Assembly (NCBI GenBank): GCA_034660415.1
Contig: JAYEJE010000084.1
Location: 1-43,373 of the forward strand
Direction of reading: 5' to 3'
Origin: Methanobacteriota archaeon
GTDB lineage: Archaea; Halobacteriota; Syntropharchaeia; Alkanophagales; Methanospirareceae
DNA: 43,373 nucleotides
In this document: piece by piece, positions 17,232 through 41,375 of the stretch
How the letters are laid out: every line of letters begins with the position of its first letter
How positions within the stretch are numbered: the stretch's first letter is position 1
Notes under the pieces: model-generated
Databases searched by the model: none
What the model saw: only the letters and a program-made list of their open reading frames with translations
Told to the model about the DNA's origin: nothing
Program-made: the position numbers and the translations under genes

Positions 17232-17329
17232 TAAAGTTAGGAATACAAAAACCATGCCCTAAAAAGATTCGGTTTTGCAAAATAAACCTAAAAAAGTTAG
17301 GTTTTGAGACGAAAACCGATGATTTTCGC
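17232..17329 (-). promoter_or_regulatory. Shared promoter/operator cassette, copy A (upstream of Feo locus 1)
   Basis: Half-sites TTAGG 17237, CCTAA 17258, TTCGG 17268, CCTAA 17287 and TTAGG 17297, giving offsets 0/21/31/50/60. It also contains AAACCTAA-N5-TTAGGTTT, a perfect 8-bp-arm palindrome. Confidence 0.7.
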
Positions 17330-17394
17330 TCTCTCATTTCGATACGATCCGAAGCTTTAAATTAGGGCCCTTGGGAGAGTAAGCGATATATGTG

Positions 17395-18012
17395 CTAAGC
17401 ATGTGTTATCAGCGGAAGCGCAACCAAAGTTCCGATGAAAATCTCGTCTTCAGGCAAGCTCAGTAATTTTTCCCTGACTTCCAGTTCCCATCCCTCATAT
17501 CTTTCTCGCTCTTCCTCTGTCGGTTTCCTTGGAATTTCATGCTCTACTATGCTCCCCAGCTCAAAATACCCGTCTGGAAACAGCTCTGGTATTACCTGTA
17601 CCCTATACGAAGTATTCGTGGATTTCCGAATAAAGGTAAACACATAATTCCCTGTCGTCAGATGTTTCGCATCTGTCCCCTCCGGCGGCTCAAGCACATA
17701 ATCTCCTATTGTTCCTTCTTGCCATGGTTCCAATTCTATCCCCAGCATATACTTGAAAGTTAGCTGCGAACCCTTGGTAGGGAGCGTGCTGATTATCTTA
17801 ATATCCTCTCTCGCTGGTATTTCTTTATCTTCATGCCACAGCTTTGAAAGAGCAAATTGTGTTGCCCTGAAACCACTCGCCACGCATACGCACGGTTTTC
17901 CATCCATCGGTTCATCGCCATGCATTTCTGCATGCAATTTCGCTATTACTTCTATTCTTATTTTTACCTGTGTTCCTCTTCCATCCATTATTATAGGTTT
18001 TAACCTCTTCAT
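17395..18012 (-). CDS. Cytoplasmic (no signal peptide) domain X protein
   Basis: GKPCVCVASGFRATQ, IPAREDIKIIS, YVFTFIRKSTN and LFPDGYFEL align with the domain in 8746-9555 and with the C-terminus of 23906-25954. Confidence 0.65.
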   Translation of the reverse strand: MKRLKPIIMDGRGTQVKIRIEVIAKLHAEMHGDEPMDGKPCVCVASGFRATQFALSKLWHEDKEIPAREDIKIISTLPTKGSQLTFKYMLGIELEPWQEGTIGDYVLEPPEGTDAKHLTTGNYVFTFIRKSTNTSYRVQVIPELFPDGYFELGSIVEHEIPRKPTEEERERYEGWELEVREKLLSLPEDEIFIGTLVALPLITHA

Positions 18013-18050
18013 TTCTTTTCTTTTTCCTCCTTTCCTTTTCTCTCACCCGC

Positions 18051-18485
18051 TCACCACGACATGTCCTTCGTTATTTGCCCTATAAGGTAGCCAAAAGGCA
18101 GCGCTATGATAAAAAGCCATACCGACGGTGTGAATTGTACGAACCATAAAAAGTCTCCTTCTCCAAGCACATACGACACTGCATTCCCCCCTATTATTAG
18201 AATATACACAATACCGTAAACCAGTGATAGGAAGAAACCGCCGAGAAGGAAAGATAGACCTCTGTACTCGCCGTTAACAGCACCTTTTACGCCCGTCAGA
18301 TACGTCGCTGCTATCACAAAGAAAAAGAGCCCACCTAATGCATCATTACCGGGAATTACGCCTACTCTTCCTATACCTGAAACCTGGAAAACTATTTTGG
18401 CTGCTCCAATGCCAATATACAAGAGACCGAGAACTATCGCGTATATCCCTACCGTTTTTCCTATTCCTGTATCAAAATCGGACAT
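18051..18485 (-). CDS. Small membrane protein downstream of FeoB permease 2
   Basis: About four TM segments. The ATG at 18485 is preceded by GGAGGTAAAAAAAAG. The ORF-track start at 18527 would overlap the FeoB stop. Confidence 0.5.
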   Translation of the reverse strand: MSDFDTGIGKTVGIYAIVLGLLYIGIGAAKIVFQVSGIGRVGVIPGNDALGGLFFFVIAATYLTGVKGAVNGEYRGLSFLLGGFFLSLVYGIVYILIIGGNAVSYVLGEGDFLWFVQFTPSVWLFIIALPFGYLIGQITKDMSW

Positions 18486-18504
18486 CTTTTTTTTACCTCC
18501 TATT

Positions 18505-19854
18505 TCATACATGTATTGGCATTCCAAGCAAGAAGTGCCCTATTCCAATAATTATTAATGAAATGAGTCCTGCCAGTATCATCAGATACGCTATTGCAAA
18601 GAACATCCACTTCAATGACATCTCTCGCCATATCGTCGCCATACATGCCACGCAAGGAACGTATATCAAACTGAATGCCAGTAATGCGTATGCCGAAAGA
18701 GGCGTGAGTACAGTAGGTAAGACATCTGCCGTTTGCCCTAACGTCTCCATTGTTGCTACCACTGTCTCCTTCGCCATGAATCCGAAAAATAGTGCCACTG
18801 CAGTCTTCCAGTCCCAGCCGAAAATCTCGACTGACGGCTGGAGAAAGTGACCGATCATTGCAATATACGAGTTCTCTATCACAGTACCACCCTGTGTTGG
18901 ACCCCATGGTAACACCTGGAGGAACCAAACAATTACGACTATACCGAATATGATTGTCCCTGCTTTATATATGAACCATTTCCCGCGCTCCCACATGTGT
19001 AGAATTGAAGCTTTTGCTGTTGGTATTGCGTAGCGAGGCAGTTCCATCATGAAAGCCGAGGGTGACCCTTTGAACAATGTGTGTCGGAAAAGTACTGCCA
19101 TTGCTATCGCTAAAGCGACACCAAGGAAAACTATTGAAAATATCACCGTCCCTACCATTTCTGCGGGGAACATAGCACCTGCTATGAACGTGTATATTAC
19201 CATCCTCGCTCCACAACTTATTAAGGGGTTCACCAGTATCGTAAGTTTTCTGTCCTTTTCACTCCCTATGGTACGACATGCCATTACCCCCGGAATATTG
19301 CATCCAAACCCACTTATCAGGGGTATAAAAGACTTACCATGCAGCCCCAATTTATACATTGCTTTGTCCATCACGAACGCTGCTCTTGACATGTAACCAC
19401 AGTCCTCTAATATAGCGAGAACAAGGAACAACAGAAATATAATTGGTATGAATGACAAAACAGTACCCACTCCATTGAATACCGCATTGTTTAGGAAGGA
19501 TAGGACAATCTTATTTGGTATCACCGCATTTGTAAGGTCTGGAAGCCATGCACCAAAGATTTTATCGGATATTAGACTCTGGAACGGAGCCCCAAAAGTA
19601 AATACTAATTGGAATACAGCCCACATCAAAGCTATAAAAACGGGTATTCCAAGTCTCTTATTCAAAAATACGACGTCGAGCATGTCGTTAATACTCCATT
19701 CCCGCTTTTTATCTACCTTCATTGTTTTGCTCAGTATTTCGTCTATCTCATCGTATCTCTTCTCTGCGAGAAGTACTTCCGGCTCTTCTTGTTCTTCTTC
19801 TTCTTCTTCTTCTTCTTCTTCCAAAACTTCTTCTTCACTCGGTTCTTCACTCAT
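18505..19854 (-). CDS. feoB: FeoB membrane part 2 with an acidic poly-Glu N-terminus
   Basis: 449 aa with GLHGKSFIPLISGFGCNIPG and other FeoB gate motifs. The N-terminus is EEEEEEEEEEQEE. Confidence 0.8.
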   Translation of the reverse strand: MSEEPSEEEVLEEEEEEEEEEQEEPEVLLAEKRYDEIDEILSKTMKVDKKREWSINDMLDVVFLNKRLGIPVFIALMWAVFQLVFTFGAPFQSLISDKIFGAWLPDLTNAVIPNKIVLSFLNNAVFNGVGTVLSFIPIIFLLFLVLAILEDCGYMSRAAFVMDKAMYKLGLHGKSFIPLISGFGCNIPGVMACRTIGSEKDRKLTILVNPLISCGARMVIYTFIAGAMFPAEMVGTVIFSIVFLGVALAIAMAVLFRHTLFKGSPSAFMMELPRYAIPTAKASILHMWERGKWFIYKAGTIIFGIVVIVWFLQVLPWGPTQGGTVIENSYIAMIGHFLQPSVEIFGWDWKTAVALFFGFMAKETVVATMETLGQTADVLPTVLTPLSAYALLAFSLIYVPCVACMATIWREMSLKWMFFAIAYLMILAGLISLIIIGIGHFLLGMPIHV

Positions 19855-19871
19855 TTTTAGTTACTTGCACC

Positions 19872-20564
19872 TCACCCTGCTGCATCTATTATCTCCCCCT
19901 TATGTGGGCTCTCGTCTATCTCCTTCAATACTTCTTCGTCCTTCTCCAGCACTTTTATCGCAAGCCATCTCGTTGGATACTTGCTTGACAGACGCGTATC
20001 CTTTTTAATCCCCGCTTCTACCTTTTTTATCAGCGCATTTATGTCTTCACCATAGTCAATCGGGTTCGCTCTTTTCCCTTTCTCCTTCGCTACCTCCACG
20101 GCAACCTTTTTCAATTCTTCCATTCCCTCTCCCGTAGTAGCAACTATTGGCACTACAGGCATACCAAGTATTCCAGACAGTTTCTGCTCATCTATCTCTA
20201 TTCCTCCCACTCCTGTCCACTGATTGATAGTCAGCACTATTTTCGCCTCCAACTCAATCAAAAGGAATGTAAGGTACAGATTCCTCTCCATGTTCGTGTT
20301 ATTCACAATATCAATTACAGCATCCGGCTTCTCCTCCACGATGAAATTCCTCGCTACCAATTCATCCATTGAACGTGCAGTAAGGCTGTAAGTGCCAGGT
20401 AAATCAACAAGTTCTATCTCCTCTCCGTCATACTTGCATTTACCCGTCTTTTTCTCCACCGTCACACCAGGCCAGTTACCAACGTGCTCTTTCATTCCGG
20501 TAAGTTGGTTGAAGGCCGCCGTCTTACCTACGTTGGGGTTTCCTATCAAGGCTACCGTTATCAT
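19872..20564 (-). CDS. feoB: FeoB G domain plus helical domain as a stand-alone protein
   Basis: GNPNVGKT (G1) and DLPG (G3). 230 aa. Located directly upstream of the permease gene. Confidence 0.8.
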   Translation of the reverse strand: MITVALIGNPNVGKTAAFNQLTGMKEHVGNWPGVTVEKKTGKCKYDGEEIELVDLPGTYSLTARSMDELVARNFIVEEKPDAVIDIVNNTNMERNLYLTFLLIELEAKIVLTINQWTGVGGIEIDEQKLSGILGMPVVPIVATTGEGMEELKKVAVEVAKEKGKRANPIDYGEDINALIKKVEAGIKKDTRLSSKYPTRWLAIKVLEKDEEVLKEIDESPHKGEIIDAAG

Positions 20565-20570
20565 TTCTTT

Positions 20571-20822
20571 CTATCCTACTATTTTTACCATTATCTTCAT
20601 CGCTATTCCTCTACCAAGCGCAATTTTTGTATCGCGCACACCAATAAGTATCGTGCCTCCGGGATTTGATACCACAACCTTTACCTTTGTCGAAGGTGTA
20701 AAGCCCATTTCAGTAAGGCGCTGTGTCATTCCTCTACCTCCCCTCAACTCTACTATCTCTCCTTCTTCACCTTCAGCAAGGAATGTTAAAGGCACTGCTT
20801 GCACTGCTTTCGTTTCACTCAT
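20571..20822 (-). CDS. feoA: FeoA (single domain)
   Basis: 83 aa with LTEMGFTPSTKVKV ... ALGRGIAMKIMV. Confidence 0.7.
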   Translation of the reverse strand: MSETKAVQAVPLTFLAEGEEGEIVELRGGRGMTQRLTEMGFTPSTKVKVVVSNPGGTILIGVRDTKIALGRGIAMKIMVKIVG

Positions 20823-21064
20823 CCGCCCTCTTCTTTCACCTCCACCCTTATAACCTCTGCTTCCTCTTTCCTTAGCGTTAGGTTGTATCCTCTCAAAAGA
20901 AATTCCACCGGATCACCCATTGGCGCTTTTCTTACTACTTCTATCCTTGAACCCCTCACGATGCCCATGTCCATCATCCTTCTTCGCTCGCCACCACTTC
21001 CTCCAACATGAGTGACTTTGCATGTATCGCCCGGTTCCAGGTCACTCAAATTTCGCTCTACCAT
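20819..21064 (-). CDS. feoA: FeoA (single domain)
   Basis: 81 aa with LSDLEPGDTCKVTHV ... MMDMGIVRGSRIEV. Confidence 0.7.
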   Translation of the reverse strand: MVERNLSDLEPGDTCKVTHVGGSGGERRRMMDMGIVRGSRIEVVRKAPMGDPVEFLLRGYNLTLRKEEAEVIRVEVKEEGG

Positions 21065-21067
21065 TTT

Positions 21068-21775
21068 TCATTCCACCCAAACCTTTTCTGCAAGTCCTCT
21101 TCCAATGGTTGCAAACTGTTCCCCGATTTTCGCAAGCACGTATTTCCCCTGTTTTGGACTTGGTACGACTATCTCCTTCCTGACCAGAGTTATCTCCTTC
21201 CCTTCTGCCATTCCAAGCTGTTCAAATTTCTCCTTAAGCGAGCGTCCACCAATTATCTCGCTTATTTTTACCTTCTCACCTTCTTTTAGATAATTTAGCT
21301 GAACGGATTTCCCTGCTTTTTCTGCCACCACCTTCGATGCCTGACCTTCGCCCATACTTATCTCCGCGCCATCAACTTCAAACACTAGAATGACGTCAGG
21401 GAGATGGCCGATAAACTCAACTTCTGTTCCTATTTTAACTCCCAGCTCGCTGATCCAATCCTCAAAAGTCTCTCCTCCTTCGATAGATTTTATCAGTGCC
21501 TTCTCTCCTTCTTCCAGTGTTAAAAGAGGAAGCATTTCGCCTTCTTTCGCCACATACACCTTATCCGCCCATCCACGAGCTAAGACTGCTTCTTTTCCTC
21601 CTGTTTTCACTGAAATAGGTCCTGCATGTACGTGCACTGGTTCAAGGGCGATTACCCTAAGTTTAGTCCCTTCTTCAATGCCCAACTCCCTGAGATATCC
21701 TGTTACCTCTGAACCACCATCTATTCTCTTTACTTCTACCGCTATTTCAGGCTCAACTTCGCTTAATTGTTCCAT
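21068..21775 (-). CDS. Triple-FeoA-domain protein (paralog)
   Basis: Collinear with 16497-17207 and 21870-22577. The ATG at 21775 (MEQLSEVEPE) follows GGAGTGGGAG and gives 235 aa, matching the paralogs. Confidence 0.7.
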   Translation of the reverse strand: MEQLSEVEPEIAVEVKRIDGGSEVTGYLRELGIEEGTKLRVIALEPVHVHAGPISVKTGGKEAVLARGWADKVYVAKEGEMLPLLTLEEGEKALIKSIEGGETFEDWISELGVKIGTEVEFIGHLPDVILVFEVDGAEISMGEGQASKVVAEKAGKSVQLNYLKEGEKVKISEIIGGRSLKEKFEQLGMAEGKEITLVRKEIVVPSPKQGKYVLAKIGEQFATIGRGLAEKVWVE

Positions 21776-21799
21776 TTTTTCTCCCACTCCAAAACAAAA

Positions 21800-21835
21800 A
21801 TAAGAAAAAGGTCAGAAAAAAACAATCCTGACCAA
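21800..21835 (-). terminator. Hairpin plus T5, a possible attenuator between the two triple-FeoA genes
   Basis: GGTCAG (21810-21815) pairs with CTGACC (21828-21833), and a T5 run follows on the minus strand. Confidence 0.3.
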
Positions 21836-21869
21836 AACATTCGCACTCTTCTTTCCTTTTGATTCTATC

Positions 21870-22577
21870 CTACGCTACCGAGACCTTTTCTGCAAGACCT
21901 TTCCCGATGGTTACAAAGTGTTCACCTATTTTCGCAAGCACGTAAGTTCCCACCTTTGGACTTGGCACAGGCGCCTCCGTCCTGACCAACGTTATCTCTT
22001 TTCCTTCCGCTACACCAATCTGTTCAAATTTCTCCGTAAGCGAGGTTCCACCAATTACCTTGCTTGCTTTTCCCTTCTCGCCTTCTTTTAGATTGTTTAG
22101 TTGAACAGATTGCCCGTCCTTTTCTACTACCACCTTCGATGCCTGACCTGGACCCATACTCATCTCTGCGCCGTCAACTTTAAACACCAGAGTGACGTCA
22201 GCAAGATGGCGGGAGAACTCAACTTCGCTTCCTATTTTAACTCCCAGCTCTTCGATCCAAGTCTCAAAAGTCTTTCCACCTTCAATTGTTTTTACCGTTC
22301 CTTTATCTCCTGCTTCGAGTCTTAAAAGCGGAAGCGTTTCCCCGCCTTTCTCCACATACACCTTATCCGCCCATCCACGAGCTATGGTAAGTTCTCCTTC
22401 TCCGCTTTTCACTGAAATAGGTCCTGCGTGCACATGCACTGGCTCAGTAGCTACCACTGTAAGCTCGGTTCCTTCTGCAATGCCCAACTCCTCCAGGTGG
22501 CTGTTGACTTCCGCGCCACCGTCTATTTTTTCTACCCGTACTTTTACCTCGGGCTCAACTTCGCTTAATAGTTTCAT
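21870..22577 (-). CDS. Triple-FeoA-domain protein (paralog)
   Basis: 235 aa with the same three-unit layout. First gene after cassette copy B. Confidence 0.7.
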   Translation of the reverse strand: MKLLSEVEPEVKVRVEKIDGGAEVNSHLEELGIAEGTELTVVATEPVHVHAGPISVKSGEGELTIARGWADKVYVEKGGETLPLLRLEAGDKGTVKTIEGGKTFETWIEELGVKIGSEVEFSRHLADVTLVFKVDGAEMSMGPGQASKVVVEKDGQSVQLNNLKEGEKGKASKVIGGTSLTEKFEQIGVAEGKEITLVRTEAPVPSPKVGTYVLAKIGEHFVTIGKGLAEKVSVA

Positions 22578-22595: not shown

Positions 22596-22695
22596 TTAAA
22601 GTTAGGGATACAAAAATCCTTCCCTAAAAAGATTCGGTTTTATGAAACAAACCTAAAAAAGTTAGGTTTTGGGGTAGAAACCGCTAATTTCTGTC
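22596..22695 (-). promoter_or_regulatory. Shared promoter/operator cassette, copy B (upstream of Feo locus 2)
   Basis: TTAGGG at 22602 and CCCTAA at 22622, followed by TTCGGTTTT and AAACCTAAAAAAGTTAGGTTTT as in copy A. Confidence 0.7.
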
Positions 22696-22720: not shown

Positions 22721-23359
22721 TCACATCCTCGCCTCGTATTTTAGCTCTTTAAATTTAAGCGTAAATGATGTTCCCTCGCCTCTATCAAGTTCTATTGTGC
22801 CATCAAGTTGTTCTACTAATGCTGTTACTAACTGCAAACCTAGGGATTCTGTGTTTTGGGAATCCAAACATTCCGGGAAACCAACGCCATTATCACTGAC
22901 AATCAAAGTAAAGTCACCGTTCTTAAGTAGTTTATACAACCCGACTTGAATCTTTCCGTTCTTGCCACCAGGGAAAGCATGCTTAAGAGAATTTGATACA
23001 AGCTCGCTGATGATCAAACCACAGGGAACTCCGGTATTAATGTCCAGGAAAATATCTTTGACCTCTATATCCAGTTTGATGCCCTTTGGGTTGTAAGAGC
23101 GAAACAAATTACCGGTAAGACCATTGATATAAGCAGCAAAGTCAATTATTGCCAGGTCCTTGGATTGGTACAACCTATCGTGTATGAGTGCCATTGACTT
23201 GACACGATTCTGGGTATCCTTGAACATCTCCAATGCTTGTTTATCCTCTATACGTCTGGATTGAAGCCTGAGCAAACTGGAAATTATTTGCAGATTATTT
23301 TTTACGCGGTGGTGAACTTCCCGCAACAGCACTTCTTTTTCCATTCCCTTCTTCCACAC
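22721..23359 (-). CDS. Histidine kinase core (HisKA_2-type H box plus HATPase_c) with no sensor, TM or receiver domain
   Basis: The H box EVHHRVKNNLQIISSLL starts at residue ~13. N and G boxes are present (SNSLKHAF, DNGVGFP). An in-frame stop lies immediately upstream of the start. Confidence 0.7.
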   Translation of the reverse strand: MWKKGMEKEVLLREVHHRVKNNLQIISSLLRLQSRRIEDKQALEMFKDTQNRVKSMALIHDRLYQSKDLAIIDFAAYINGLTGNLFRSYNPKGIKLDIEVKDIFLDINTGVPCGLIISELVSNSLKHAFPGGKNGKIQVGLYKLLKNGDFTLIVSDNGVGFPECLDSQNTESLGLQLVTALVEQLDGTIELDRGEGTSFTLKFKELKYEARM

Positions 23360-23394
23360 TCATTTTTTTTAGGTTCTCCTAATTGGTAGGATGA

Positions 23395-23495
23395 TAAGGA
23401 ATTAGGCTCATAAATAATAGCCCCTAAAAAGGTTCAATTTTGGTAAATAACCCTAAAAAAGTTAGGTTTGGGGATAGAAACCGATGATTTTCGCT
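23395..23495 (-). promoter_or_regulatory. Shared promoter/operator cassette, copy C (upstream of the kinase)
   Basis: TTAGG at 23402 and CCCTAA at 23422 (offset 21), followed by AACCCTAAAAAAGTTAGGTTT. Confidence 0.65.
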
Positions 23496-26130: not shown

Positions 26131-26225
26131 TTGTTGTTAGGGGCATATAAATCACGCCCTAAAAATGTTCGGTTTTGGATATAAAGCCGAAAAAGGTTAG
26201 GCTTTTTGGAAAAACCGACTCTGTG
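26131..26225 (-). promoter_or_regulatory. Shared promoter/operator cassette, copy D (~180 bp upstream of the CbiX fusion gene)
   Basis: TTAGG 26137, CCTAA 26158, TTCGG 26168, CCGAA 26187 and TTAGG 26197. In the gene-sense orientation the core reads GATTTATATGCC, a good TATA box. Confidence 0.75.
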
Positions 26226-26908: not shown

Positions 26909-27118
26909 GGTAGGTATAATATTATTAGGGCAGCCTATAATTAAACACTTCTATTTTGATCAAACATGTGGTCTCTCCGCAATCAAGAAATTATTTTGGA
27001 TTATCATTCACAAAGAAAAAGAAAAAGCAGGGAACAGATGCCTTATATCTGCCCATCCACTTACACATCTTTGTCTATTTCCCTTTTACGTCAATCAACG
27101 GATATTCGTCTTGACTGG

Positions 27119-28400: not shown

Positions 28401-28495
28401 GTGTTGTTAGGGACATATAAATTACGCCCTAAAAATACTCGGTTTTGGATAACAAGCCGAACAAGGTTAGGATTTTTGGAAAAAACCTCGTTTGT
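28401..28495 (-). promoter_or_regulatory. Shared promoter/operator cassette, copy E (~180 bp upstream of the ZinT-like gene)
   Basis: TTAGGG at 28407 and CCCTAA at 28427, followed by CTCGGTTTTGGATAACAAGCCGAA and GGTTAGGATTTTT. The sense-strand core is AATTTATATG. Confidence 0.75.
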
Positions 28496-30540: not shown

Positions 30541-30615
30541 TTGTTAGGTACATAAATAATGACCCCTAAAAATACTCGGTTTTGGATAAGAAGCCGAATA
30601 AAGTTAGGATTTCGG
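30541..30615 (-). promoter_or_regulatory. Shared promoter/operator cassette, copy F
   Basis: TTAGG 30544, CCTAA 30565, CTCGG 30575, CCGAA 30594 and TTAGG 30604. The first half-site is only 19 bp from the ATG at 30525. Confidence 0.75.
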
Positions 30616-30659
30616 TACGTGTTTGGCAGTTTATACCTGCCTCTGTGGATAACCAGAGG

Positions 30660-31701: not shown

Positions 31702-31775
31702 TTGTTAGGTACATAAATAATACCCTCTAAAAATGTTCGGTTTTGGCTAAAAAGCCGAATAAAGTTAGTATTTCG
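31702..31775 (-). promoter_or_regulatory. Shared promoter/operator cassette, copy G
   Basis: TTAGG at 31705 and TCTAA at 31726 (offset 21), followed by TTCGGTTTTGGCTAAAAAGCCGAA and AGTTAGT. Confidence 0.7.
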
Positions 31776-31832
31776 AGCGAAAGCCGTATAAATATCTTCC
31801 ATATTCTGGCTTTCCAAATATCTCACGCACAC

Positions 31833-33131: not shown

Positions 33132-33161
33132 GTAAAGACTCACCTCATATTATAATCCGAT

Positions 33162-33240
33162 GTTGTTAGGTATACAAATAGCACCCCCTAAAAATGTTCG
33201 GTTTTGTCTAAAAACTCGAAGAAAGTTATGCTTTTTGGCA
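33162..33240 (-). promoter_or_regulatory. Shared promoter/operator cassette, copy H
   Basis: TTAGG 33166, CCTAA 33187, TTCGG 33197, TCGAA 33216 and TTATG 33226, giving offsets 0/21/31/50/60. Confidence 0.7.
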
Positions 33241-33328
33241 TCAGCCTACGAGGAACTTTTTAAGAAGAGAACGTTTGTAGTATTTTTCATTTTTGTATCA
33301 CCCCCATCTTCTTTCTTTACTTCTTAAC

Positions 33329-34618
33329 CTATTGAGCATAAATTCTCTTTGCAATTTTAGAAGTCTTCTCTTCAAGACTCGCGAGTTCTCCTTTACCCTT
33401 ATATAAATATTCCATCGCCATCTCCGTACCTATAGTATTCGCCCAGAACATACCCTCAGAGGTGAGTTCGACCTCATTCTTCCCGAGTATCATTTCCCCT
33501 CTATCCACGGAAGTTTCTATCGTTTTGGCAAATGCCTCAAGAGGATCAAAACCCCACCTCCTCATTGGCTCTTCAATATCTACCCTTCCGTATTGAATTT
33601 GTGATACGCACCAGAGTACAGGAATAATATTTCTAGGCACGCTAAAAACGTTTCCCTGTTTGTTCTGGATGTATTTTTCACTTGTAGATTTATGATTTAT
33701 GAAACAATCAGCCAAAAAGCCCGTTGCCCCAGCGCCTAAACCGAGAATATTTCCCAAACTATTGAAATAGGTAGAATAGCGGAACTTGTCCCGCCCGTTT
33801 GAAAAATGATTGATATTTACGTGATTATAGCCTTCATCTTCCAGAAAACTCTTTGCGTTTTCAAAACTATTCATTGCCGTTCCGATTGGAGGCTGCTCGA
33901 ATTGTCTGGCTATTGCCGTTTTGGGCGCATATATCAAAGGATAAAGAGAGATTCCATCAACCCCTATTCCCACCGCTTTTTGCAAATCCACAATTACATC
34001 CCTCATCTCTTGTCCCGGCAGATCATACAAAATGTCTATTGTAAGAAGCGGAAACATCCCTCTCGCTCTATTTAATTTCTTAACGACTTCTTTACCGCCT
34101 CCTCTCCTTCCAAGCATTTTTCTTAAACCCAGATTGAACGTTTGAACCCCTACACTCAAACGATTAACACCTAATTCCAGAAGCAAGTTCATTTTATCTT
34201 CTGTAAGTTCGCTTGCTGTTGTTTCAACACTGATTTCTGCATCGTTATCTATCTTAAATGTATCCCTCAGACCAGCAAATAACAACTTAAGTTCTTCTGA
34301 GGATAGAGATGTTGGAGTACCTCCGCCTACATATATGGTTTGTATGGAGGAAAAGTAATCGCTCCACTCGCTCGCTCCGTCCAGAATCGCGTCCACGTAT
34401 TTCAGCGTATTCTCTGTGGGTAACTCTTTTGTAAGAATGCAAAAAGTGCATCTACCAGCGCAGAAGGGTATATGTATATATAATGCACCCTTTTCACCGC
34501 CCTTTTCCCTTAATTTGTCGAACAGCCATTCAATATCCCTCTTTTTAAGATAAGGAAAGAATGGGAACAGTGTATCATGGTGTGATTTTAGCCATTTCCT
34601 TGTGTTATTATTATCCAT
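33329..34618 (-). CDS. HemN-family (class C) radical SAM enzyme. HemW, HemZ or ChuW/HutW-like function cannot be told apart by eye.
   Basis: CxxxCxxC is present as HIPFCAGRCTFC. YVGGGTPT and LSVGVQTF are HemN-family motifs. 429 aa. Confidence 0.75.
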   Translation of the reverse strand: MDNNNTRKWLKSHHDTLFPFFPYLKKRDIEWLFDKLREKGGEKGALYIHIPFCAGRCTFCILTKELPTENTLKYVDAILDGASEWSDYFSSIQTIYVGGGTPTSLSSEELKLLFAGLRDTFKIDNDAEISVETTASELTEDKMNLLLELGVNRLSVGVQTFNLGLRKMLGRRGGGKEVVKKLNRARGMFPLLTIDILYDLPGQEMRDVIVDLQKAVGIGVDGISLYPLIYAPKTAIARQFEQPPIGTAMNSFENAKSFLEDEGYNHVNINHFSNGRDKFRYSTYFNSLGNILGLGAGATGFLADCFINHKSTSEKYIQNKQGNVFSVPRNIIPVLWCVSQIQYGRVDIEEPMRRWGFDPLEAFAKTIETSVDRGEMILGKNEVELTSEGMFWANTIGTEMAMEYLYKGKGELASLEEKTSKIAKRIYAQ

Positions 34619-34631
34619 ATGTCTTCCAATT

Positions 34632-34829
34632 TTATTTAGAACTATTCTTTGATCTTATTGCTCGTAATCCAAAATCCAACTTCGACATAAAAAACATACT
34701 CGCTTCTGTATTGCTGGCGTTGAAACGATCAATATTAAATTCTTGGATCACCGGTGCCATAAGCGTCAAACTCCGCATCGCTACAAACATCAAAACCGCA
34801 TAGATTGTTACTTCTTTATTGTGACTCAT
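34632..34829 (-). CDS. Hypothetical 65-aa ORF between the Cys-rich ORF and the radical SAM gene
   Basis: Only ORF-level support. There is no SD-like sequence and no recognisable motif. Confidence 0.25.
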   Translation of the reverse strand: MSHNKEVTIYAVLMFVAMRSLTLMAPVIQEFNIDRFNASNTEASMFFMSKLDFGLRAIRSKNSSK

Positions 34830-34888
34830 TTTTCAATTGACAAGAAAAGAAAGGACCGGGCATTTAAAATTTTATTGCATTTTTGAAA

Positions 34889-35062
34889 TTATTTATTCCC
34901 TCCTTCATCCAACCCCTCTCCTTTCTCCCGCTTATCATTCTCCTTATTGCATCTGCACGCTTTACCCCGGCAGCACCCACCACCACAATTGCAGCTACTA
35001 TCGCACAGCGCAAGTGCAAGCAAAAACGCCATCTTCTCAACTATCTTTTTGCCTTCTTTCAT
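34889..35062 (-). CDS. Unlisted 57-aa Cys-rich small protein (below the ORF-track cutoff): MKEGKKIVEKMAFLLALALCDSSCNCGGGCCRGKACRCNKENDKREKGEGLDEGGNK
   Basis: Translated by hand. The ATG at 35062 lies 21 bp from the first half-site of cassette I, which matches the geometry at copies A, B and F. A basic and hydrophobic N-terminus ends LALC, followed by 7 Cys in 19 residues and an acidic tail. Confidence 0.55.
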   Translation of the reverse strand: MKEGKKIVEKMAFLLALALCDSSCNCGGGCCRGKACRCNKENDKREKGEGLDEGGNK

Positions 35063-35070
35063 AATGTACT

Positions 35071-35172
35071 AGTGTTAGGTTGTTAGGTATACAAATAGCA
35101 TCCCCTAAAAGAGTTCGGTTCTGTCTAAAAAGCCGAATAAAGTTGGGTTTTTGTAAAAAACCGATGATTTTG
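35071..35172 (-). promoter_or_regulatory. Shared promoter/operator cassette, copy I
   Basis: TTAGG at 35083 (with an extra TTAGG at 35075) and CCTAA at 35104, followed by TTCGGTTCTGTCTAAAAAGCCGAA, AGTTGGGTTTTT and AACCGATGATTTT. Confidence 0.7.
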
Positions 35173-35223
35173 TATTTTATCCTAAATTCTAATTAATTTC
35201 GGGTTTCTTCTTTTTTCTAATCT

Positions 35224-35253
35224 TGTTAGGGTTCATTATTTATGTCCCTAACA
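35224..35253 (+). promoter_or_regulatory. Core-only copy of the operator/TATA module, driving flavodoxin on the plus strand
   Basis: TTAGGG-TTCATTATTTATGT-CCCTAA has the same 21-bp spacing. It lies 46 nt upstream of the flavodoxin ATG, which has an AGGAGG SD. Confidence 0.7.
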
Positions 35254-35296: not shown

Positions 35297-35740
35297 ATGG
35301 TAAAGGTAGTTTTGATATATGGTTCGACCACGGGAAACACGGAAGCATTGTCGGAACATGTAGCAGCAGGACTTGAGAGGGGGATGGCAGAAGTCACGGT
35401 AAAGGACGTGGCAAAAGCAAGTGTTGACGAACTCGCGAATTATGATGCGATCGTATTTGGGTGCTCCACCTGGGGCGAAGGCGATTTGCAGGATGATTTC
35501 TTTGATTTCCACGAAGCGATGGACGGGATCTCGCTGAAAGGTAAGAAGGCGGCGGTTTTTGGTCCAGGAGATAGTGAAGACTATCAGGATTCGTTCTGCA
35601 CGGCAGTGGACATCCTCAAGGAATCGCTAGAGGGTCATGGTGCCGAAATCGTTGCTGAAAGCTTCAAGATTGACGGAGAGGTTGAGCCTGCATTTGAAGA
35701 CGCCGAAGCTTGGGGATTGAAGGTTGCCAAAGCACTTTAG
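35297..35740 (+). CDS. Short-chain flavodoxin
   Basis: VLIYGSTTGNTE FMN-phosphate loop and the STWGEGDLQDD motif. 147 aa. Confidence 0.85.
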   Translation: MVKVVLIYGSTTGNTEALSEHVAAGLERGMAEVTVKDVAKASVDELANYDAIVFGCSTWGEGDLQDDFFDFHEAMDGISLKGKKAAVFGPGDSEDYQDSFCTAVDILKESLEGHGAEIVAESFKIDGEVEPAFEDAEAWGLKVAKAL

Positions 35741-36239: not shown

Positions 36240-37022
36240 TCATTCAGAAGAGTTAGCTGGTCTTATAGGAACGATATAAGGCCTTCCACCGTGATTGTTC
36301 ACTTCCACTTCAACATCATAAACGTGCTTAATCTTTTCAGGCGTCAGGACCGAGGCAGCGTCTCCGGCATCAAAAATCTCGCCTCCGTTCATCATGACTA
36401 CTCGATCAGCATATCTCGAAGCAAGATTCAGGTCGTGGATAGCCATTACAGCCGAGATTTCCTTCTGCCTTACCAAATTCCGTATTATTTCCATCACCTC
36501 AAGCTGATGCTTTATATCCAGGTTTGAGGTAGGCTCATCGAGGAGGAGAACATCTGCTTCCTGAGCAAGTGCTCTTGCAATGGCCACCTTCTGCTGCTGA
36601 CCTCCACTGAGTTCGTTGAAGTCCCGCATAGCAAAACGTTCGATTCCCAACAGTTTCAATATCTCCTCAACCTTTTCTATGTCCTGTTCATCACTGTGCC
36701 ATCTAAGATGCGGACGTCTACCCATGAGAACGGTATCGAAGACAGTAGCAGGAAAAACGTGTGCAGAACCCTGCGGCACATAGCCCATATGCCTGGCGAT
36801 CTCAATCCGGCTCATCTTTTTTATCTCTCTTTCGTCTAGCAGTATGCTTCCATTAGCGGGCTTTAGAATCCGGTCTATGCATCTGAGCAGCGTAGATTTT
36901 CCCGCTCCGTTTGGACCCACTACGCCTAACATCTCCGATTCCGAAAGCTCTATACAGATATCCTTCAGTACATGCACACTTGCGTAATTAAATTCCAGTT
37001 CTTTTATTTTTAGTTTCGCCAT
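36240..37022 (-). CDS. ABC transporter ATPase of the iron-siderophore/heme/cobalamin type (FepC/HmuV/BtuD-like)
   Basis: Walker A GPNGAGKST, signature LSGGQQQ and Walker B LLLDEPTS. It is paired with a FecCD permease. Confidence 0.8.
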   Translation of the reverse strand: MAKLKIKELEFNYASVHVLKDICIELSESEMLGVVGPNGAGKSTLLRCIDRILKPANGSILLDEREIKKMSRIEIARHMGYVPQGSAHVFPATVFDTVLMGRRPHLRWHSDEQDIEKVEEILKLLGIERFAMRDFNELSGGQQQKVAIARALAQEADVLLLDEPTSNLDIKHQLEVMEIIRNLVRQKEISAVMAIHDLNLASRYADRVVMMNGGEIFDAGDAASVLTPEKIKHVYDVEVEVNNHGGRPYIVPIRPANSSE

Positions 37023-37030
37023 TTTTTAGT

Positions 37031-38101
37031 TCACCAGTATCCCCCCCTCCCTCTCAATATCAGGTAAATGAAGAGTGGAACGCCCAGATATGCGGTCATT
37101 ATACCCACAGGTAGAATAACCGGTGCCATGATTGTCCTTGCCGCAGTGTCTGCGGCGACAAGTAATATCGCTCCAACTAGACCAGATGTCGGAATCAGAA
37201 ATCTATTATCGCCGCCTATAACCATGCGACATATATGTGGGGCGACCAAACCAACGAATCCGATTGTGCCGGTGAAGCATACGATACCGGCAACTAAGAG
37301 TGATGCAAGCACCATCGTAATGATTCTAGTGCGCTCTACCTGGACACCCAAGCTTTTAGCTGTTTCGTCTCCTGCACCCAGCACGTTAAGATCCCACGAT
37401 TTCAGTATAAGCAAAGGAACACAGCATACTAGTACGACAGATACGAGTGACAGCTTTGACCATGAGGCCCTTCCAAGGGAGCCGACCATCCAGAATATCG
37501 CTCCTTTCACCGCTTCCGCTTCGGCAAAATATTGTAGCGTCATTGTCATCGCAGTGAAGAGATACATCATTGCAATGCCTGCCAGGATCATGCTCTCGGG
37601 TGTCGCACCCCTACGACTTGAAAGACCGAGGATAATGAACGAAACCACTAATGCGAAGGCGAATGCATTTCCTATTACCAGATATTGCCCACCGACGAAG
37701 CCGGCACCGGCAAGTATGCCAAGAGAAGCGCCAAATCCTGCGCCTGATGCAATACCAAGCGTATAAGGACTCGCAAGCGGATTTCTCAGCACTCCCTGCA
37801 TCACACATCCTGCAACACCGAGTCCAAAGCCCGCAGCAACGCCCATTAAGATTCGAGGCAGTCTCAACTTCCATACGCATATCTCGGCAAGTCTGCTCGA
37901 CTCGAAGTAGTTGGGTAAGAACCGATGAAGAAATGCGGAATACGCATCCCAGATCGATACATTTGCCGAACCGAGAGATGCCGCTAAGCCCGCGAGAATA
38001 AATAGTAGTGGGATGAGGATAAGAATAAAGGTTACTTTCCTGCCGATGAACTTCTGATATTGTTCCTTTATCGTACTACTCTTCCCCGGTACTGTTGCCA
38101 T
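37031..38101 (-). CDS. FecCD-family permease (BtuC/HmuU-like)
   Basis: 356-aa polytopic protein with RLPRILMGVAAGFGLGVAGCVMQGVLRNPLASPYTLGI, which is typical of FecCD. Confidence 0.8.
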   Translation of the reverse strand: MATVPGKSSTIKEQYQKFIGRKVTFILILIPLLFILAGLAASLGSANVSIWDAYSAFLHRFLPNYFESSRLAEICVWKLRLPRILMGVAAGFGLGVAGCVMQGVLRNPLASPYTLGIASGAGFGASLGILAGAGFVGGQYLVIGNAFAFALVVSFIILGLSSRRGATPESMILAGIAMMYLFTAMTMTLQYFAEAEAVKGAIFWMVGSLGRASWSKLSLVSVVLVCCVPLLILKSWDLNVLGAGDETAKSLGVQVERTRIITMVLASLLVAGIVCFTGTIGFVGLVAPHICRMVIGGDNRFLIPTSGLVGAILLVAADTAARTIMAPVILPVGIMTAYLGVPLFIYLILRGRGGYW

Positions 38102-38140: not shown

Positions 38141-38232
38141 GTATTAGGTTAACAAAAAACATGCTCTAAAAATACTCGGTTTTGGATAAAAACTGAATAT
38201 AGTTAGGTTTTTGAGAAAAAGCCGATGATTTG
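38141..38232 (-). promoter_or_regulatory. Shared promoter/operator cassette, copy J (upstream of the ABC importer)
   Basis: TTAGG at 38144 and TCTAA at 38165 (offset 21), followed by CTCGGTTTTGGATAAAAACTGAAT, AGTTAGGTTTTT and AGCCGATGATTT. Confidence 0.65.
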
Positions 38233-38309: not shown

Positions 38310-38648
38310 TCACTCCCCCAATCGCTCACACAGAAATATCTTAACAAAATCTATCAGCCCGTAAGCCTCCGTAACGACTTTCAAACCGTGTTCTCGCAGC
38401 AACTCCTCAAGGTTTCGTTTCGCAAAATCTCGGTAATAGTTGCTCTCATAACGTGATGTAAATGACACGTGCAGCCATCTATGCAATTTGTTCTTCTTCT
38501 TAGCCACCCACAACATTTCTTCTGACAACTCAATCCCCATGACTTCATAACCCCTTTTCGCAAATGCAAACGCCTGTGTCCGGATTCTAGTGCAGACATC
38601 CAGAATTTTTATTTCGTCTCCTTTGTCAATCAGATCTGCAAAATAATG
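38310..38648 (-). pseudogene. Decayed class I SAM methyltransferase: no usable start, degenerate SAM motif, apparent internal loss
   Basis: The stop-to-stop frame reads HYFADLIDKGDEIKILDVCTRIRTQAFAFAKRGYEVMGIELSEEML... CTRIRT replaces the GxGxG loop. The first Met lies 36 codons into the frame. Confidence 0.5.
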
Positions 38649-38695
38649 TCACCTAAAAATGTTCGATTTTTAATAAAAACCGAAAGATATTGGAA
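38641..38695 (-). promoter_or_regulatory. Truncated cassette copy L, lacking the promoter-proximal TTAGG
   Basis: CACCTAAAAATGTTCGATTTTTAATAAAAACCGAAAGATATTGG aligns with the central part of the other copies. Confidence 0.45.
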
Positions 38696-38699
38696 CTAC

Positions 38700-39209
38700 C
38701 TATACAAATCTACCATCTGACCTCTTTTTATTTACATTGCGTGATTTCCCGGTAAGCCACCCTATTCGCTTTGCCATTCGAGAATCAAAATCAGGAACGT
38801 AGGGCTTTATATCTAACAGAGGACTCCCACCTAAAATGTCTACATCCTGAATATGGAGTATGCACCCTTCAACTTTGACACAACGCACCACAGAGATACC
38901 GATGGGATTAGGTCGCCCAGGGATTCTTGTGGCAAATACTCCATGCGTATTCTTATCCAGATATGGTGTGACCTCCAATGAATATGAATAGCCATCAGAT
39001 AGATGAAAATGATAAATCAGAATAATATGCGAAAAACCTTCAATGTCCTTGAGACCCGCACAGTATTTCGGGAATACCTCTACGGTTCCTGCAACTCCTT
39101 CGGCACCTGTTGGTTGTATGGGCATCCCTTTAGGATTCTTGAAAGGCGAGTGAATAATTCCTATTGGTTTGTACACAATTTCATTCATTTTTGTCATTTT
39201 TCTCTTCAA
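38700..39209 (-). CDS. trmO: TsaA/TrmO-like (YaeB family) SAM-dependent methyltransferase
   Basis: PIGIIHSPF, FSHIILIYHFH, GVFATRIPGRPNPIG and LLDIKPYVPDFD are hallmark YaeB/TrmO motifs. Confidence 0.7.
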   Translation of the reverse strand: MKRKMTKMNEIVYKPIGIIHSPFKNPKGMPIQPTGAEGVAGTVEVFPKYCAGLKDIEGFSHIILIYHFHLSDGYSYSLEVTPYLDKNTHGVFATRIPGRPNPIGISVVRCVKVEGCILHIQDVDILGGSPLLDIKPYVPDFDSRMAKRIGWLTGKSRNVNKKRSDGRFV

Positions 39210-40114: not shown

Positions 40115-40296
40115 TTTGTTTGTTTATTTTTGTACTTATTCATTATGTATTTCGTGCTTTTAACCCCAGAAACGTATATTCAATAAATAAACGGTATCAC
40201 TTTTTGTTTTCCTCCCTCAGTAATCCTCACACCCCTTTCAGAACTCTTCATGAAGCAGCTTCTCTTCTAAACATGCTCAGTCCTCTATATGTTGTA

Positions 40297-40692
40297 ATTC
40301 CACAGCTACCCCGCACTTGGTTCCAGTGTCGGGAGAACGAGTACGTGCATGCTGACGCATATCGCAATAATTATCAGAATAACCTTGACGATAAAATACG
40401 GAACCACGACAACGGCTGAATATCCTATCGTCAGGCTTAAAAACGCAATCATCAGAATCTTGGTCTTCATCGGAATCCCCTTTCCCTCGTGCCAGTTTTT
40501 TATATATTCTCCAAACCAGCGGTTTGTGATGAGCCAGCGGTACCATCTCTCCGAGCTTCGGGCGTAGCAGCCGAGAGCGAGCAGGAGAAAGGGCGTGGTA
40601 GGCAGGATCGGCAGAACTATCCCCACGCATCCAATTATCAGGAATAACGTGCCCACGATTCGCAATAGCAACCCTGCCGCTGTGTTTGATCG
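40297..40692. repeat. ~395-bp direct repeat, copy 2
   Basis: See 30660-31055. Confidence 0.8.
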
Positions 40693-40806
40693 TTTATGTC
40701 CTGTCCCCTCCCTTTCATTGGTATAACCCGGCTGCGTTGCATCTCCGTACCGCTCGTTTATCAATTCCCCTTTTCTATCGGTTCCTACAAAATCAGAGAA
40801 CGCCAT
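40306..40806 (-). CDS. Chimeric YbaN/DUF454 paralog whose first ~30 codons and SD region copy the 5' end of the PAN-like AAA gene
   Basis: MAFSDFVGTDRKGELINERYGDATQPGYTNE compares with MATANFVGTDRKEELLDELYEEEKRPGYTDE. At nucleotide level 40720-40822 matches 33045-33146. The rest is collinear with 30669-31064. Confidence 0.6.
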   Translation of the reverse strand: MAFSDFVGTDRKGELINERYGDATQPGYTNEREGTGHKRSNTAAGLLLRIVGTLFLIIGCVGIVLPILPTTPFLLLALGCYARSSERWYRWLITNRWFGEYIKNWHEGKGIPMKTKILMIAFLSLTIGYSAVVVVPYFIVKVILIIIAICVSMHVLVLPTLEPSAG

Positions 40807-40832
40807 GTAAAGACACTCCTCCTATTAACGTC

Positions 40833-41225
40833 CTATTCAACGTTTTGCGTATAGCTAACATTCTTTTTACCCGTTAAGCACACGGCTTTTGTGTCATTCC
40901 CGATTAGTTCTGTTTCTTCAACCGCAAAACCTGCCTCATTTATCATTGCCGCAAGCTCGTCTTGGCTGAAACTATTATTATTTGACGGTAGTTTACCGAA
41001 TTTTTTTAGATAACGAATCACCAGTTTCATCTTTTTTAACAGGCTCATCCCATGTCCTGTAACATCAACGATTACAATCTGTCCATCGCTGCTTAGAACT
41101 CTGTGGCTTTCCTTTAGCACTGCAATTGGGCACTCTACAATGTGGGGCAGGTTCACCAGTAAAAGTGCATCGCCATGAAACGTCCTGGCAAGTTTACCCC
41201 AATATTCATGTTCACTTCCTGACAT
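40833..41225 (-). CDS. Truncated class I methyltransferase, C-terminal half only; possibly a pseudogene
   Basis: DALLLVNLPHIVECPIAVLKESHRVLSSDGQIVIVD matches post-motif-II MTase regions. There is no SAM-binding loop. Cassette K lies 70 bp upstream. Confidence 0.45.
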   Translation of the reverse strand: MSGSEHEYWGKLARTFHGDALLLVNLPHIVECPIAVLKESHRVLSSDGQIVIVDVTGHGMSLLKKMKLVIRYLKKFGKLPSNNNSFSQDELAAMINEAGFAVEETELIGNDTKAVCLTGKKNVSYTQNVE

Positions 41226-41289
41226 TTTTATCTCATTCTCCGTTCTAATAGGCCGTGGTAAAGACGTTAATCCTATTATTATAGTCTGA

Positions 41290-41375
41290 TGTTGTTAGGT
41301 ACATAAATAATAACCCCTAAAAAGATTTGGATTTAGCTAAAAAACCTAATAAAGTTAGGCTTTGATAATAAAAAC
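41290..41375 (-). promoter_or_regulatory. Shared promoter/operator cassette, copy K
   Basis: TTAGG 41295, CCTAA 41316, TTTGG 41326, CCTAA 41345 and TTAGG 41355, giving offsets 0/21/31/50/60. Confidence 0.7.

Follow-up and report, generated by a model that had tools for sequence, protein, structure and literature searches.

A conserved 84-bp cassette enclosing a TATA-like element precedes iron-acquisition genes in ANME-1 archaea and is a candidate operator of a linked MntR-type regulator

Contig JAYEJE010000084.1 (assembly GCA_034660415.1) belongs to an archaeon of the Methanospirareceae. We analyzed the whole stretch of 43,373 bp, called the window below. It has a G+C content of 43.5% and is almost identical to contigs of anaerobic methanotrophic archaea of group 1 (ANME-1) such as AG-394-G06. 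Pfam and NCBIfam searches indicated that its 17-43 kb part is an iron-acquisition island. The island contains two feo clusters with a split FeoB, several FeoA genes, and genes for three proteins with a triple FeoA domain (3xFeoA). It also contains a FecCD/ABC importer, a flavodoxin, ZinT-like and CbiX-domain exported proteins, an AAA ATPase, a HemN/HutW-like radical S-adenosylmethionine (SAM) enzyme, and a 154-amino acid (aa) regulator of the DtxR family. A repeated cassette, the subject of this study, encloses a TATA-like element and precedes feo, FecCD, flavodoxin and related genes, 18-182 bp ahead of their start codons. In the window and in related loci, the genes directly behind cassettes include those for 3xFeoA, FeoA/FeoB, FecCD/ABC, Peripla_BP_2, ExbB-like and ZinT-like proteins. 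As these genes are not homologous, the cassettes were not copied along with them.

The pattern TTAGG-N14..18-CCTAA was found 10 times in the window, against 0.29 expected. Repeat finding returned an 11-copy family of 101 nt and a 12-copy family of 47 nt, at the places where a preliminary description of this DNA had put a repeated promoter/operator cassette with named copies. The copies were aligned without gaps across about 85 columns. A position weight matrix (PWM) was built from copies in other genomes and then applied to the window with a listing threshold of 15 bits. Eleven full copies scored 50-99 bits, whereas the best of 20 shuffles scored -19. Pattern count, repeat families, alignment and PWM confirmed the cassette, and the inventory was 11 full cassettes (A-K), one degenerate copy before the flavodoxin gene, and one relic, L (Table 1). 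The flavodoxin copy had been described as core-only; instead, it is a degenerate full-length copy of 19 bits. Copy L, which had been called truncated, scored below 15 bits. All 11 full cassettes are on the minus strand, the same strand as the genes behind them. The degenerate copy is on the plus strand and points to the plus-strand flavodoxin gene, and thus all 12 PWM-scored copies are oriented toward a downstream gene.

The half-site offsets of 0/+21/+31/+50/+60 given in the preliminary description were exact in 10 of the 11 full copies. The exception was copy J, in which a 1-bp deletion displaces the last two half-sites by one. Other details also held when verified copy by copy, namely CCTAA as the fourth half-site in A, B, C and K, and the TATA regions of copy D (GATTTATATGCC in gene sense) and copy E (AATTTATATG). 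D and E form an 84% identical pair with leader sequence in common. The distance to the ATG was 29 bp for A, 24 bp for B, 18 bp for F and 20 bp for I, whereas it was 182 bp for D and 178 bp for E, matching the earlier division into copies close to a start codon and copies with leaders of about 180 nt.

Table 1. Cassettes, N4 boxes and the candidate regulator gene in the window
Feature	Position	Strand	Evidence	Genes behind it and remarks
Cassette A	17236..17321	-	99.2 bits; offsets exact; Pfam	3xFeoA (16497-17207), then feoA, feoB-N, feoB-C (14092-16478)
Cassette B	22601..22686	-	91.2 bits; Pfam	two 3xFeoA, two feoA, split feoB, FmdE-like gene (17395-22577)
Cassette C	23401..23486	-	67.2 bits; Pfam	HisKA_2 histidine kinase (22721-23359)
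N4 box TTAGGTTCTCCTAA (TTAGG-N4-CCTAA)	23369..23382	.	sole exact N4 box in the window	downstream of cassette C, before the kinase ATG
Cassette D	26136..26221	-	92.7 bits	682-aa CbiX-domain protein (23906-25954), 182-nt leader
Candidate regulator, two-domain MntR-type DtxR-family protein, 154 aa	26444..26908	-	Pfam PF01325 + PF02742	
Box ATAGGCTGCCCTAA (gene sense)	26925..26938	.		directly after TATA-like TTTAATTA, ~16 nt before the regulator ATG
Cassette E	28406..28491	-	91.9 bits	ZinT-like protein (27119-28228), 178-nt leader; regulator gene downstream
Cassette F	30543..30628	-	81.7 bits; ATG at 18 bp	Pyr_redox_2 (29323-30525), DUF1641
Cassette G	31704..31789	-	96.8 bits	97-aa protein (31336-31629), DUF454; orthologous arrangement in L025, L053, L065
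Cassette H	33165..33250	-	80.2 bits	AAA ATPase (31833-33143); same gene behind cassettes in 6 related loci
Cassette I	35082..35167	-	82.0 bits; ORFs; NCBIfam	57-aa Cys-rich ORF (34889-35062), 65-aa ORF, HemN/HutW-like radical SAM (33329-34618)
Degenerate cassette	35167..35252	+	19.1 bits; exact TTAGG-N16-CCTAA at 35226	toward flavodoxin (35297-35740), DUF2023
Cassette J, 1-bp deletion	38143..38228	-	50.3 bits; offsets	FecCD permease + ABC ATPase (36240-38101)
Relic copy L	38631..38700	-	repeat finding; < 15 bits	before decayed methyltransferase remnant
Cassette K	41294..41379	-	87.2 bits	methyltransferase-like gene (40833-41225), DUF454, methyltransferase; orthologous in L048, L059

An information profile was calculated from 84 non-redundant copies of about 47 assemblies, with coordinates counted from AACCGA of the cassette core. 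It showed a conserved block from -45 to +38, about 84 bp long, with sharp edges. Read toward the gene, the elements are ordered (T)TCGG-N15-CCTAA, N5, TTMGG-N14-CCGAA, N5, TTAGG-N16-CCTAA, followed by the start codon 18-182 bp past the cassette. The five half-sites originally named are all present; the count was short by one, because a sixth, weaker half-site, (T)TCGG, lies at about +80 in the offset series. The last N16 contains a T-rich TATA-like TTATTTAT/ATTTATAT, and T occupies positions +23, +25-27, +29 and +31 in 83-98% of the copies. The tRNA-Met gene of the window carries TTTTATTATAT in its promoter, about 22 bp ahead of the mature 5' end. The start codon nearest to a cassette edge in the window is 18 bp away, i.e., at least 28 bp from the TATA centre. 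The assignment of a TATA element inside the first pair thus has indirect support.

Start codons near the cassette imply short or absent leaders for F, I, B and A. Leaderless or near-leaderless transcripts had been proposed for all four; this is plausible especially for F and I, judged from the sequence. The gene behind cassette H probably starts at a downstream ATG, behind the Shine-Dalgarno sequence GAGGTGA. The leaders behind D (25955-26136) and E (28229-28406) have a common element of about 35 nt, AAACTTTT-N3-6-AAAAGTTT(T/G)ATCAAAA(A)CGCTTCGCA(G). The element was also found in related loci L010, L018, L031, L034, L040, L042, L046, L072, L078 and L079. Neither an Rfam match nor a consensus structure from RNAalifold was obtained for this element, which could act as another DNA operator or form a weak hairpin in the RNA.

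The three inverted repeats per cassette might instead fold as RNA in a transcribed leader and act as a riboswitch or attenuator. We consider this extremely unlikely. Start codons 18-29 bp after several copies place the promoter within or upstream of the cassette, the TATA-like element is within the cassette itself, and the stems would be A/T-rich with loops of 14-16 nt. The cassette matched no Rfam family; in an Rfam 15 scan of the window, only the tRNA-Met gene at 3717-3791 matched.

A genome collection was scanned with the core AACCGAR-N2-TTTTTAGRG-N15-CCTAA. At least 80 loci (8 kb each) with 91 matches were obtained, from about 47 assemblies as counted from accession prefixes. Almost all were from ANME-1/Methanophagales; the others were from Syntrophoarchaeum and Candidatus Methanolliviera. 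At positions outside the search pattern, 64 of 82 copies had TTMGG at -17 and 38 of 82 had CCKAA at -27; the background is about 1 in 82. This conservation indicates that half-sites, not spacers, are under purifying selection across the 84 non-redundant copies. The genes behind the cassettes in the related loci encode triple-FeoA (13), FeoA (~10) and AAA ATPase (6) proteins. Further targets are ZinT-like, FecCD, periplasmic binding, ExbB-like and DUF2325 proteins and a small acidic peptide, and flavodoxin genes recur in 10 of the 80 listed loci. Cassettes precede iron-uptake genes across the assemblies, in agreement with the iron-regulon promoter/operator module originally proposed.

Many copies within 24 kb, inverted repeats inside the cassette, and pairs such as D/E, 84% identical and with a shared leader, could also point to mobile or duplicated DNA. 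The cassette would then have no common role in regulation and be either a repeat like a miniature inverted-repeat transposable element or a piece of promoter that was copied recently. The preliminary description had named random scatter of this kind as the outcome that would refute it. No scatter was observed. Only 6 of the 91 cores overlapped mechanical open reading frames (ORFs) of at least 100 aa, against 73.5% expected from the DNA share (P~1e-41); no search was aimed specifically at terminal repeats or target-site duplications. A same-strand ORF started within 300 nt downstream of 66 of the 91 cores, and 9 more were cut by contig ends. In addition, all window copies face a downstream gene, the copies precede non-homologous genes and so were not copied with them, and conservation is position-specific, with half-sites fixed and spacers free. 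Copies were present at orthologous genes in genomes of different orders, and L, alone in preceding a dead gene, is decaying too. We regard the mobile-DNA explanation as refuted.

Among the related contigs, L072 (CABGHH010000143.1, binned as Ca. Methanolliviera GoM_asphalt) has a cassette region one base off window copy E and is also a close match to the locus of ANME-1 AG-394-G06 (L001). It is probably a mis-binned ANME-1 contig. The Methanolliviera contigs L030, L035, L041, L056 and L073 have their own cassette variant.

To identify a candidate binder, the genes around the cassettes were compared. ORF clustering of the listed loci indicated that a DtxR-family gene is the only recurrent transcription factor. 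By tblastn, the regulator gene was present in 15 of the 80 listed loci, whereas the MarR gene (42741-43166) and the histidine kinase gene were in none of them. The MarR protein, which had been suggested as a binder together with the DtxR-like protein, was rejected on this basis. The MarR gene heads a separate unit (41495-43166, minus strand) with a 221-aa protein and a GDT1/UPF0016 cation transporter. This unit has no cassette upstream, and just GDT1 recurs in related loci (2 loci). The MarR protein more likely controls its transporter unit than the iron cassettes.

Because loci chosen by the motif are circular evidence for a link to the regulator, five loci were chosen by the regulator protein alone. 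They are from the cultured Methanohalobium evestigatum Z-7303, two Methanosarcinales metagenome-assembled genomes (MAGs), a Methanospirareceae MAG, and a MAG labelled Methanomicrobia. The regulator gene adjoins or sits within the feoAB operon in all five, and it is the last gene of the feo operon in three of them, M. evestigatum included. In all five, the only exact grammar matches within 12-20 kb were directly upstream of feoA, in the same order. Upstream of feoA in M. evestigatum, the sequence is TTAGG-N14-CCTAA-N5-TTAGG-N16-CCTAA, with CTATTAATATT in the N16. This locus, L081, is CP002069.1 1252507-1272944; within it, the feoA promoter is at 6868-6922 and the regulator gene at 10001-10438. 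Recurrence in the motif-chosen loci, the grammar at feoA in all regulator-anchored loci, and a box at the regulator's own promoter (see below) agree with the linkage or autoregulation expected of a DtxR-type operator and its cognate regulator. FeoB is split into GTPase and membrane ORFs in the window (14092-15951 and 18505-20564) and in Methanosarcinales loci L081, L082 and L084, and it is fused in Methanospirareceae locus L083 and Methanomicrobia-labelled locus L085.

The candidate regulator has a winged helix-turn-helix domain (PF01325, E=6.5e-22) and a metal-binding/dimerisation domain (PF02742, E=1.7e-15). It lacks the SH3/FeoA third domain of the three-domain DtxR/IdeR proteins. Its closest solved relative is Bacillus subtilis MntR (E=5.5e-25), and its score with the NCBIfam MntR equivalog (NF003025) was 126.6 bits, below the cut-off of 138. 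The DtxR family assignment of the preliminary description therefore stood, whereas the classical DtxR/IdeR type did not. An exact-sequence lookup of the window regulator in public contigs found no match. The MntR ligands D8, E11, H77, E102 and H103 are invariant in the archaeal orthologues. At position 99, all archaeal orthologues have Cys instead of the Glu99 of MntR. Cys99 is at the position of Cys102 in the Fe-responsive DtxR/IdeR proteins. The metal-ligand roles in DtxR/MntR are reportedly those worked out by Guedon and Helmann in 2003. Relative to B. subtilis MntR, the residues of the dimer-dimer interface (K20, Y22, R24 and D27) are conserved, with a charge swap at E55/R58. The base-reading residues are changed (H35Q, K41E), which fits a different target sequence. 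A C-terminal extension is characteristic of the regulator clade (residues ~123-144, SAPDYPQWL.HF..FC.TG.HPC). It forms an H-x4-C-x4-H-x-C motif (His132, Cys137, His142, Cys144) that is absent from B. subtilis MntR. The motif may form an additional metal site that takes the place of the absent SH3 domain.

A second site type, the palindrome TTAGG-N4-CCTAA or its one-mismatch version, was found at two places in the window, 23369 and 26925 (Table 1). Upstream of regulator orthologues with 60-97% identity, a TATA element, (A/T)TAGG-N4-CCTAA, and about 10-16 nt before the ATG are conserved. In one orthologue lineage, a perfect CCTAA-N5-TTAGG replaces the N4 box, and the two forms share the central CCTAA. 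Of the 17 exact N4 boxes in related loci, 12 were located downstream of a cassette at a distance of up to 90 bp; such zones cover 1.6% of the DNA. The position of the box at 26925 suggests an autoregulation site of the regulator. The N4 form may correspond to the single-dimer unit within the classical DtxR 19-mer, which is our own reading of the sequences. An N4 box was also seen in the examined genes of a protein of ~410 aa, a frequent cassette target (11 loci including L028, L020, L005, L046 and L030). This protein has a conserved N-terminus (RKRRIWELQ..T.CRILGL), followed by a long region resembling a coiled coil, and ends in a DUF2325 domain. The gene of a 55-aa acidic peptide has the same pattern of cassette plus N4 box.

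The six TTMGG/CCKAA pentamers of each cassette are inverted TTAGG-type half-sites of the DtxR kind. Their centres are at -45, -25, -15, +4, +14 and +35, and their spacing follows multiples of 10.0 bp, not 10.5 bp. With a helical turn of 10.5 bp, offsets +50, +60 and +80 are out of phase by -86, -103 and -137 degrees. The near-regular phasing noted earlier was reproduced, but the conclusion that the sites lie on one helix face fails at 10.5 bp per turn and holds only with overwound or wrapped DNA. In 500 kb of related DNA, the spacing of inverted pairs peaked at N4 (17), N14 (88), N15 (13) and N16 (122), whereas everted pairs had a single peak at N5 (162); the background was 0-5. The CCKAA-N5-TTMGG units have A/T tracts alongside and a period of 29-30 bp.

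The long pairs of the preliminary description have three internal spacings (N14, N15 and N16), whereas CCKAA-N5-TTMGG has one. The half-sites of a symmetric dimer must be a fixed distance apart. The more parsimonious choice is therefore the N5 unit, and the dimer-binding unit may be CCKAA-N5-TTMGG rather than the long pair. This argument uses the constant versus variable spacing and the stand-alone N5 units in regulator promoters. Masking of pattern-defined cassettes to isolate independent N5 units was confounded, because diverged cassettes escaped the mask. Two other parses were rejected. In the first, each long palindrome was split into a pair of classical 14-bp sites for overlapping dimers, but the inner positions of the logo are not TTAGG-like; the overlap would be just 2-4 bp, and the dyads would be 10-12 bp apart and face almost the same side. 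An MntR-like 19-bp period is incompatible with the pentamer centres. The spacing of the array matched none of the characterised members compared, i.e., the 19-bp DtxR/IdeR box, the N4 TroR box, and the 18-bp MntR site with its 19-bp period.

These results suggested that the cassette is probably, with moderate confidence on our part, an iron-regulon core promoter within a multi-dimer operator of the linked MntR-type DtxR-family regulator. When Fe(II) is sufficient, the metal-loaded regulator (26444-26908; the metal is probably Fe2+) would bind as several dimers to the six half-sites. Each dimer unit would be the 15-bp palindrome CCKAA-N5-TTMGG, with pentamers at +/-3..7 from the dyad, repeating every 29-30 bp with half-units at both ends. 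The coated 84 bp would approach the TATA box to within about 6 bp from both sides, and TBP/TFB or RNA polymerase would be excluded, shutting off the iron-acquisition island jointly. When iron is low, the apo-protein would leave and all promoters would fire. The N4 boxes, at or just before the expected start on some promoters, would be a second lock, and the one at the regulator's own promoter would serve autoregulation.

Several points weigh against this model. The half-site centres of the long pairs are 19-21 bp apart, too far for one dimer, and neither parse of the array fits a characterised DtxR-family geometry. The 29-30-bp period leaves gaps of 11-12 bp between dimers, so the direct dimer-dimer contacts of the MntR type, which use a 19-bp period, would be impossible without DNA bending. 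As the base-reading residues differ, the specificity of B. subtilis MntR is not transferable to this protein. Databases label the regulator as Mn-dependent, and it keeps the MntR-like Asp8, where DtxR has Met10. The presence of ZinT-like and CbiX-like proteins among the targets could be a sign of other metals. Finally, the half-site polarity of the N5 unit is opposite to that of the TroR/DtxR N4 box, which calls for two binding modes in a single protein or for two paralogues.

This last point is the main uncertainty, because it allows for two regulators. The linked MntR-type protein would bind the N4 boxes alone, and another factor, a DtxR paralogue or an unrelated protein, would occupy the 84-bp array. 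The N4 form predominates at the regulator's own promoter and is the only experimentally defined archaeal TTAGG motif, and archaea have on average about 3 DtxR paralogues (PMC10783522). On the other hand, the regulators of M. evestigatum and two Methanosarcinales sit in a feo operon with only the N14/N5/N16 array upstream, and no second recurrent transcription factor was found in the 80 listed loci. The lineage with N5 in place of N4 at the regulator promoter, CCTAA being common to both, suggests that one protein reads both forms. We consider two regulators unlikely, though less so than any other alternative.

An activator role of the upstream units was also considered. Two of the three palindromes are upstream of the TATA-like element, where archaeal activators bind, and they could form an upstream activating sequence from which a low-iron factor recruits TBP/TFB. 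B. subtilis MntR activates through an 84-bp array, and TroR is bifunctional. However, the best-conserved pair brackets the TATA element itself, extra boxes are found at the expected start site, and the targets are uptake genes, a class repressed by metal-loaded DtxR-family proteins in all cases studied. Activation is therefore improbable in our view.

The proposed operator was compared with known systems. TroR of Haloferax volcanii, a DtxR-family protein, represses iron uptake, and its motif from chromatin immunoprecipitation sequencing is TTTAGGC-NNN-CCTAAAA, with tandem motifs about 30 bp apart in the promoter of a siderophore operon (PMC10783522). The TTAGG/CCTAA pentamers are common to TroR and the cassette, and the TroR motif is that of the N4 boxes at 23369 and 26925. 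Both have tandem sites about 30 bp apart near TATA, and iron-replete repression of uptake fits both. In contrast, the ANME cassette mostly has CCKAA-N5-TTMGG or TTMGG-N14/15/16-CCKAA, and it is a fixed module of six half-sites and 84 bp enclosing TATA, whereas the studied TroR promoter has two tandem sites.

In a cryo-electron microscopy structure of B. subtilis MntR on the mneP region, four cooperative dimers cover 84 bp, and their helices read bp +/-4..7 of 18-bp sites (PMC11882963). MntR and the ANME regulator are both two-domain proteins without SH3, and several dimers over 84 bp are also what we propose for the window array. Reading at +/-4..7 from the dyad is consistent with pentamers at +/-3..7 in the N5 unit. 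The MntR sites differ in sequence, are contiguous at a 19-bp period and activate efflux in a bacterium, whereas the ANME period is 29-30 bp and the array overlaps an archaeal TATA element at uptake genes. The regulators also differ at E55/R58, H35/K41 and Glu99, as described above. SloR of Streptococcus mutans has a 72-76-bp footprint over three palindromes, and its cooperativity runs through the FeoA domain (PMC12096823). Like the proposed regulator, SloR is a DtxR-family repressor cooperative on three palindromes over a metal-uptake promoter; however, its half-sites are AATTAA-type hexamers, and the C-terminal FeoA domain used for cooperativity is absent in the ANME protein.

The outer pentamers of the DtxR/IdeR iron box TTAGGTTAGCCTAACCTAA are those of the cassette, and the TATA-spanning pair is 7 bp wider (N16 versus N9), exactly as first described. 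The 19-mer holds two overlapping units of the TTAGG-N4-CCTAA type, the form of the N4 boxes, whereas its proteins are three-domain with SH3 and the protein here is two-domain and MntR-type. Two dimers bind the iron box on opposite faces of one 19-bp site. MDR1 of Archaeoglobus fulgidus is an archaeal DtxR-family repressor at metal-uptake promoters, as we propose for the cassette, and is said, from work by Bell in 1999, to have multiple operators. The MDR1 consensus is GTT-N8,9-AAC (cited in PMC3074139), not TTAGG, and MDR1 was rejected on sequence as the closest analogue.

The genes most frequently behind cassettes encode stand-alone triple-FeoA proteins, with three paralogues in the window. 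The regulator lacks the FeoA/SH3 domain that makes the dimer contacts in SloR, and the triple-FeoA products could bridge its dimers. The array might then be a 'repressosome' scaffold, with triple-FeoA proteins as a trans-acting cooperativity factor linking dimers 29-30 bp apart. We consider this very unlikely. If true, the 10.0-bp phasing would imply wrapped or overwound DNA, and a target product would tune the cooperativity of its own repression in a feedback loop.

ANME-1 archaea consume much of the methane of marine sediments, have an exceptional iron demand, and are not in pure culture. To our knowledge, almost nothing is known of their gene regulation. FeoAB is reportedly the core of the archaeal 'FetR' ferrous-iron regulons predicted by Leyn and Rodionov in 2015; as far as we know, ANME-1, Syntrophoarchaeum and Methanolliviera were not in that study. 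DtxR-family control of archaeal iron uptake and multi-dimer arrays in the DtxR family are known already. Literature searches on ANME-1/iron/DtxR/promoter, FetR, and Methanosarcina iron limitation returned no paper on the cassette. What appears new, as far as the searchable literature shows, is the fixed six-half-site grammar of 84 bp with TATA inside, part of which may overlap the Methanosarcinales motif predicted by Leyn and Rodionov (2015). The spacing unlike that of the characterised operators that could be checked, and the apparent conservation of the grammar from Methanosarcinales to ANME-1, also seem new. So does the expansion to a dozen promoters in one ANME-1 island.

The grammar gives a sequence-only readout of a putative iron regulon in genomes of ANME-1, Syntrophoarchaeum, Methanolliviera and Methanosarcinales. 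The regulon would include unstudied members, namely the triple-FeoA, AAA ATPase and DUF2325 proteins, the Cys-rich peptide beside the radical-SAM enzyme, and the CbiX- and ZinT-like exported proteins. The cassettes are also a natural set of presumably co-regulated archaeal promoters with the TATA box inside the operator, and a DtxR/MntR-family protein appears to use a half-site geometry unseen in the characterised members checked. As the same grammar is upstream of the feo-dtxR operon in the cultured M. evestigatum, the model is directly testable.

Some features of the window were noted in addition. Cassette I (minus strand) and the flavodoxin cassette (plus strand) are back to back (35082-35252), joined at 35167, and together occupy about 170 of the 234 bp of the divergent intergenic region. 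The 57-aa Cys-rich ORF behind cassette I contains LCDSSCNCGGGCCRGKACRCNKEN, and the cassette I genes (33329-35062, minus strand) could be an iron-regulated peptide-modification or heme-related module. Behind relic L, the region 38310-38640 (minus strand) is a SAM-methyltransferase remnant containing ILDVCTRIRTQAFAFAKRGYEVMGIELSEEML, without a proper start. The relic promoter and its methyltransferase gene appear to be decaying together. Outside the iron island, at 8746-13494 on the minus strand, tandem paralogous genes encode PGF-CTERM surface proteins. They have no cassette and no link to the island, and their internal repeats are 86-97% identical.

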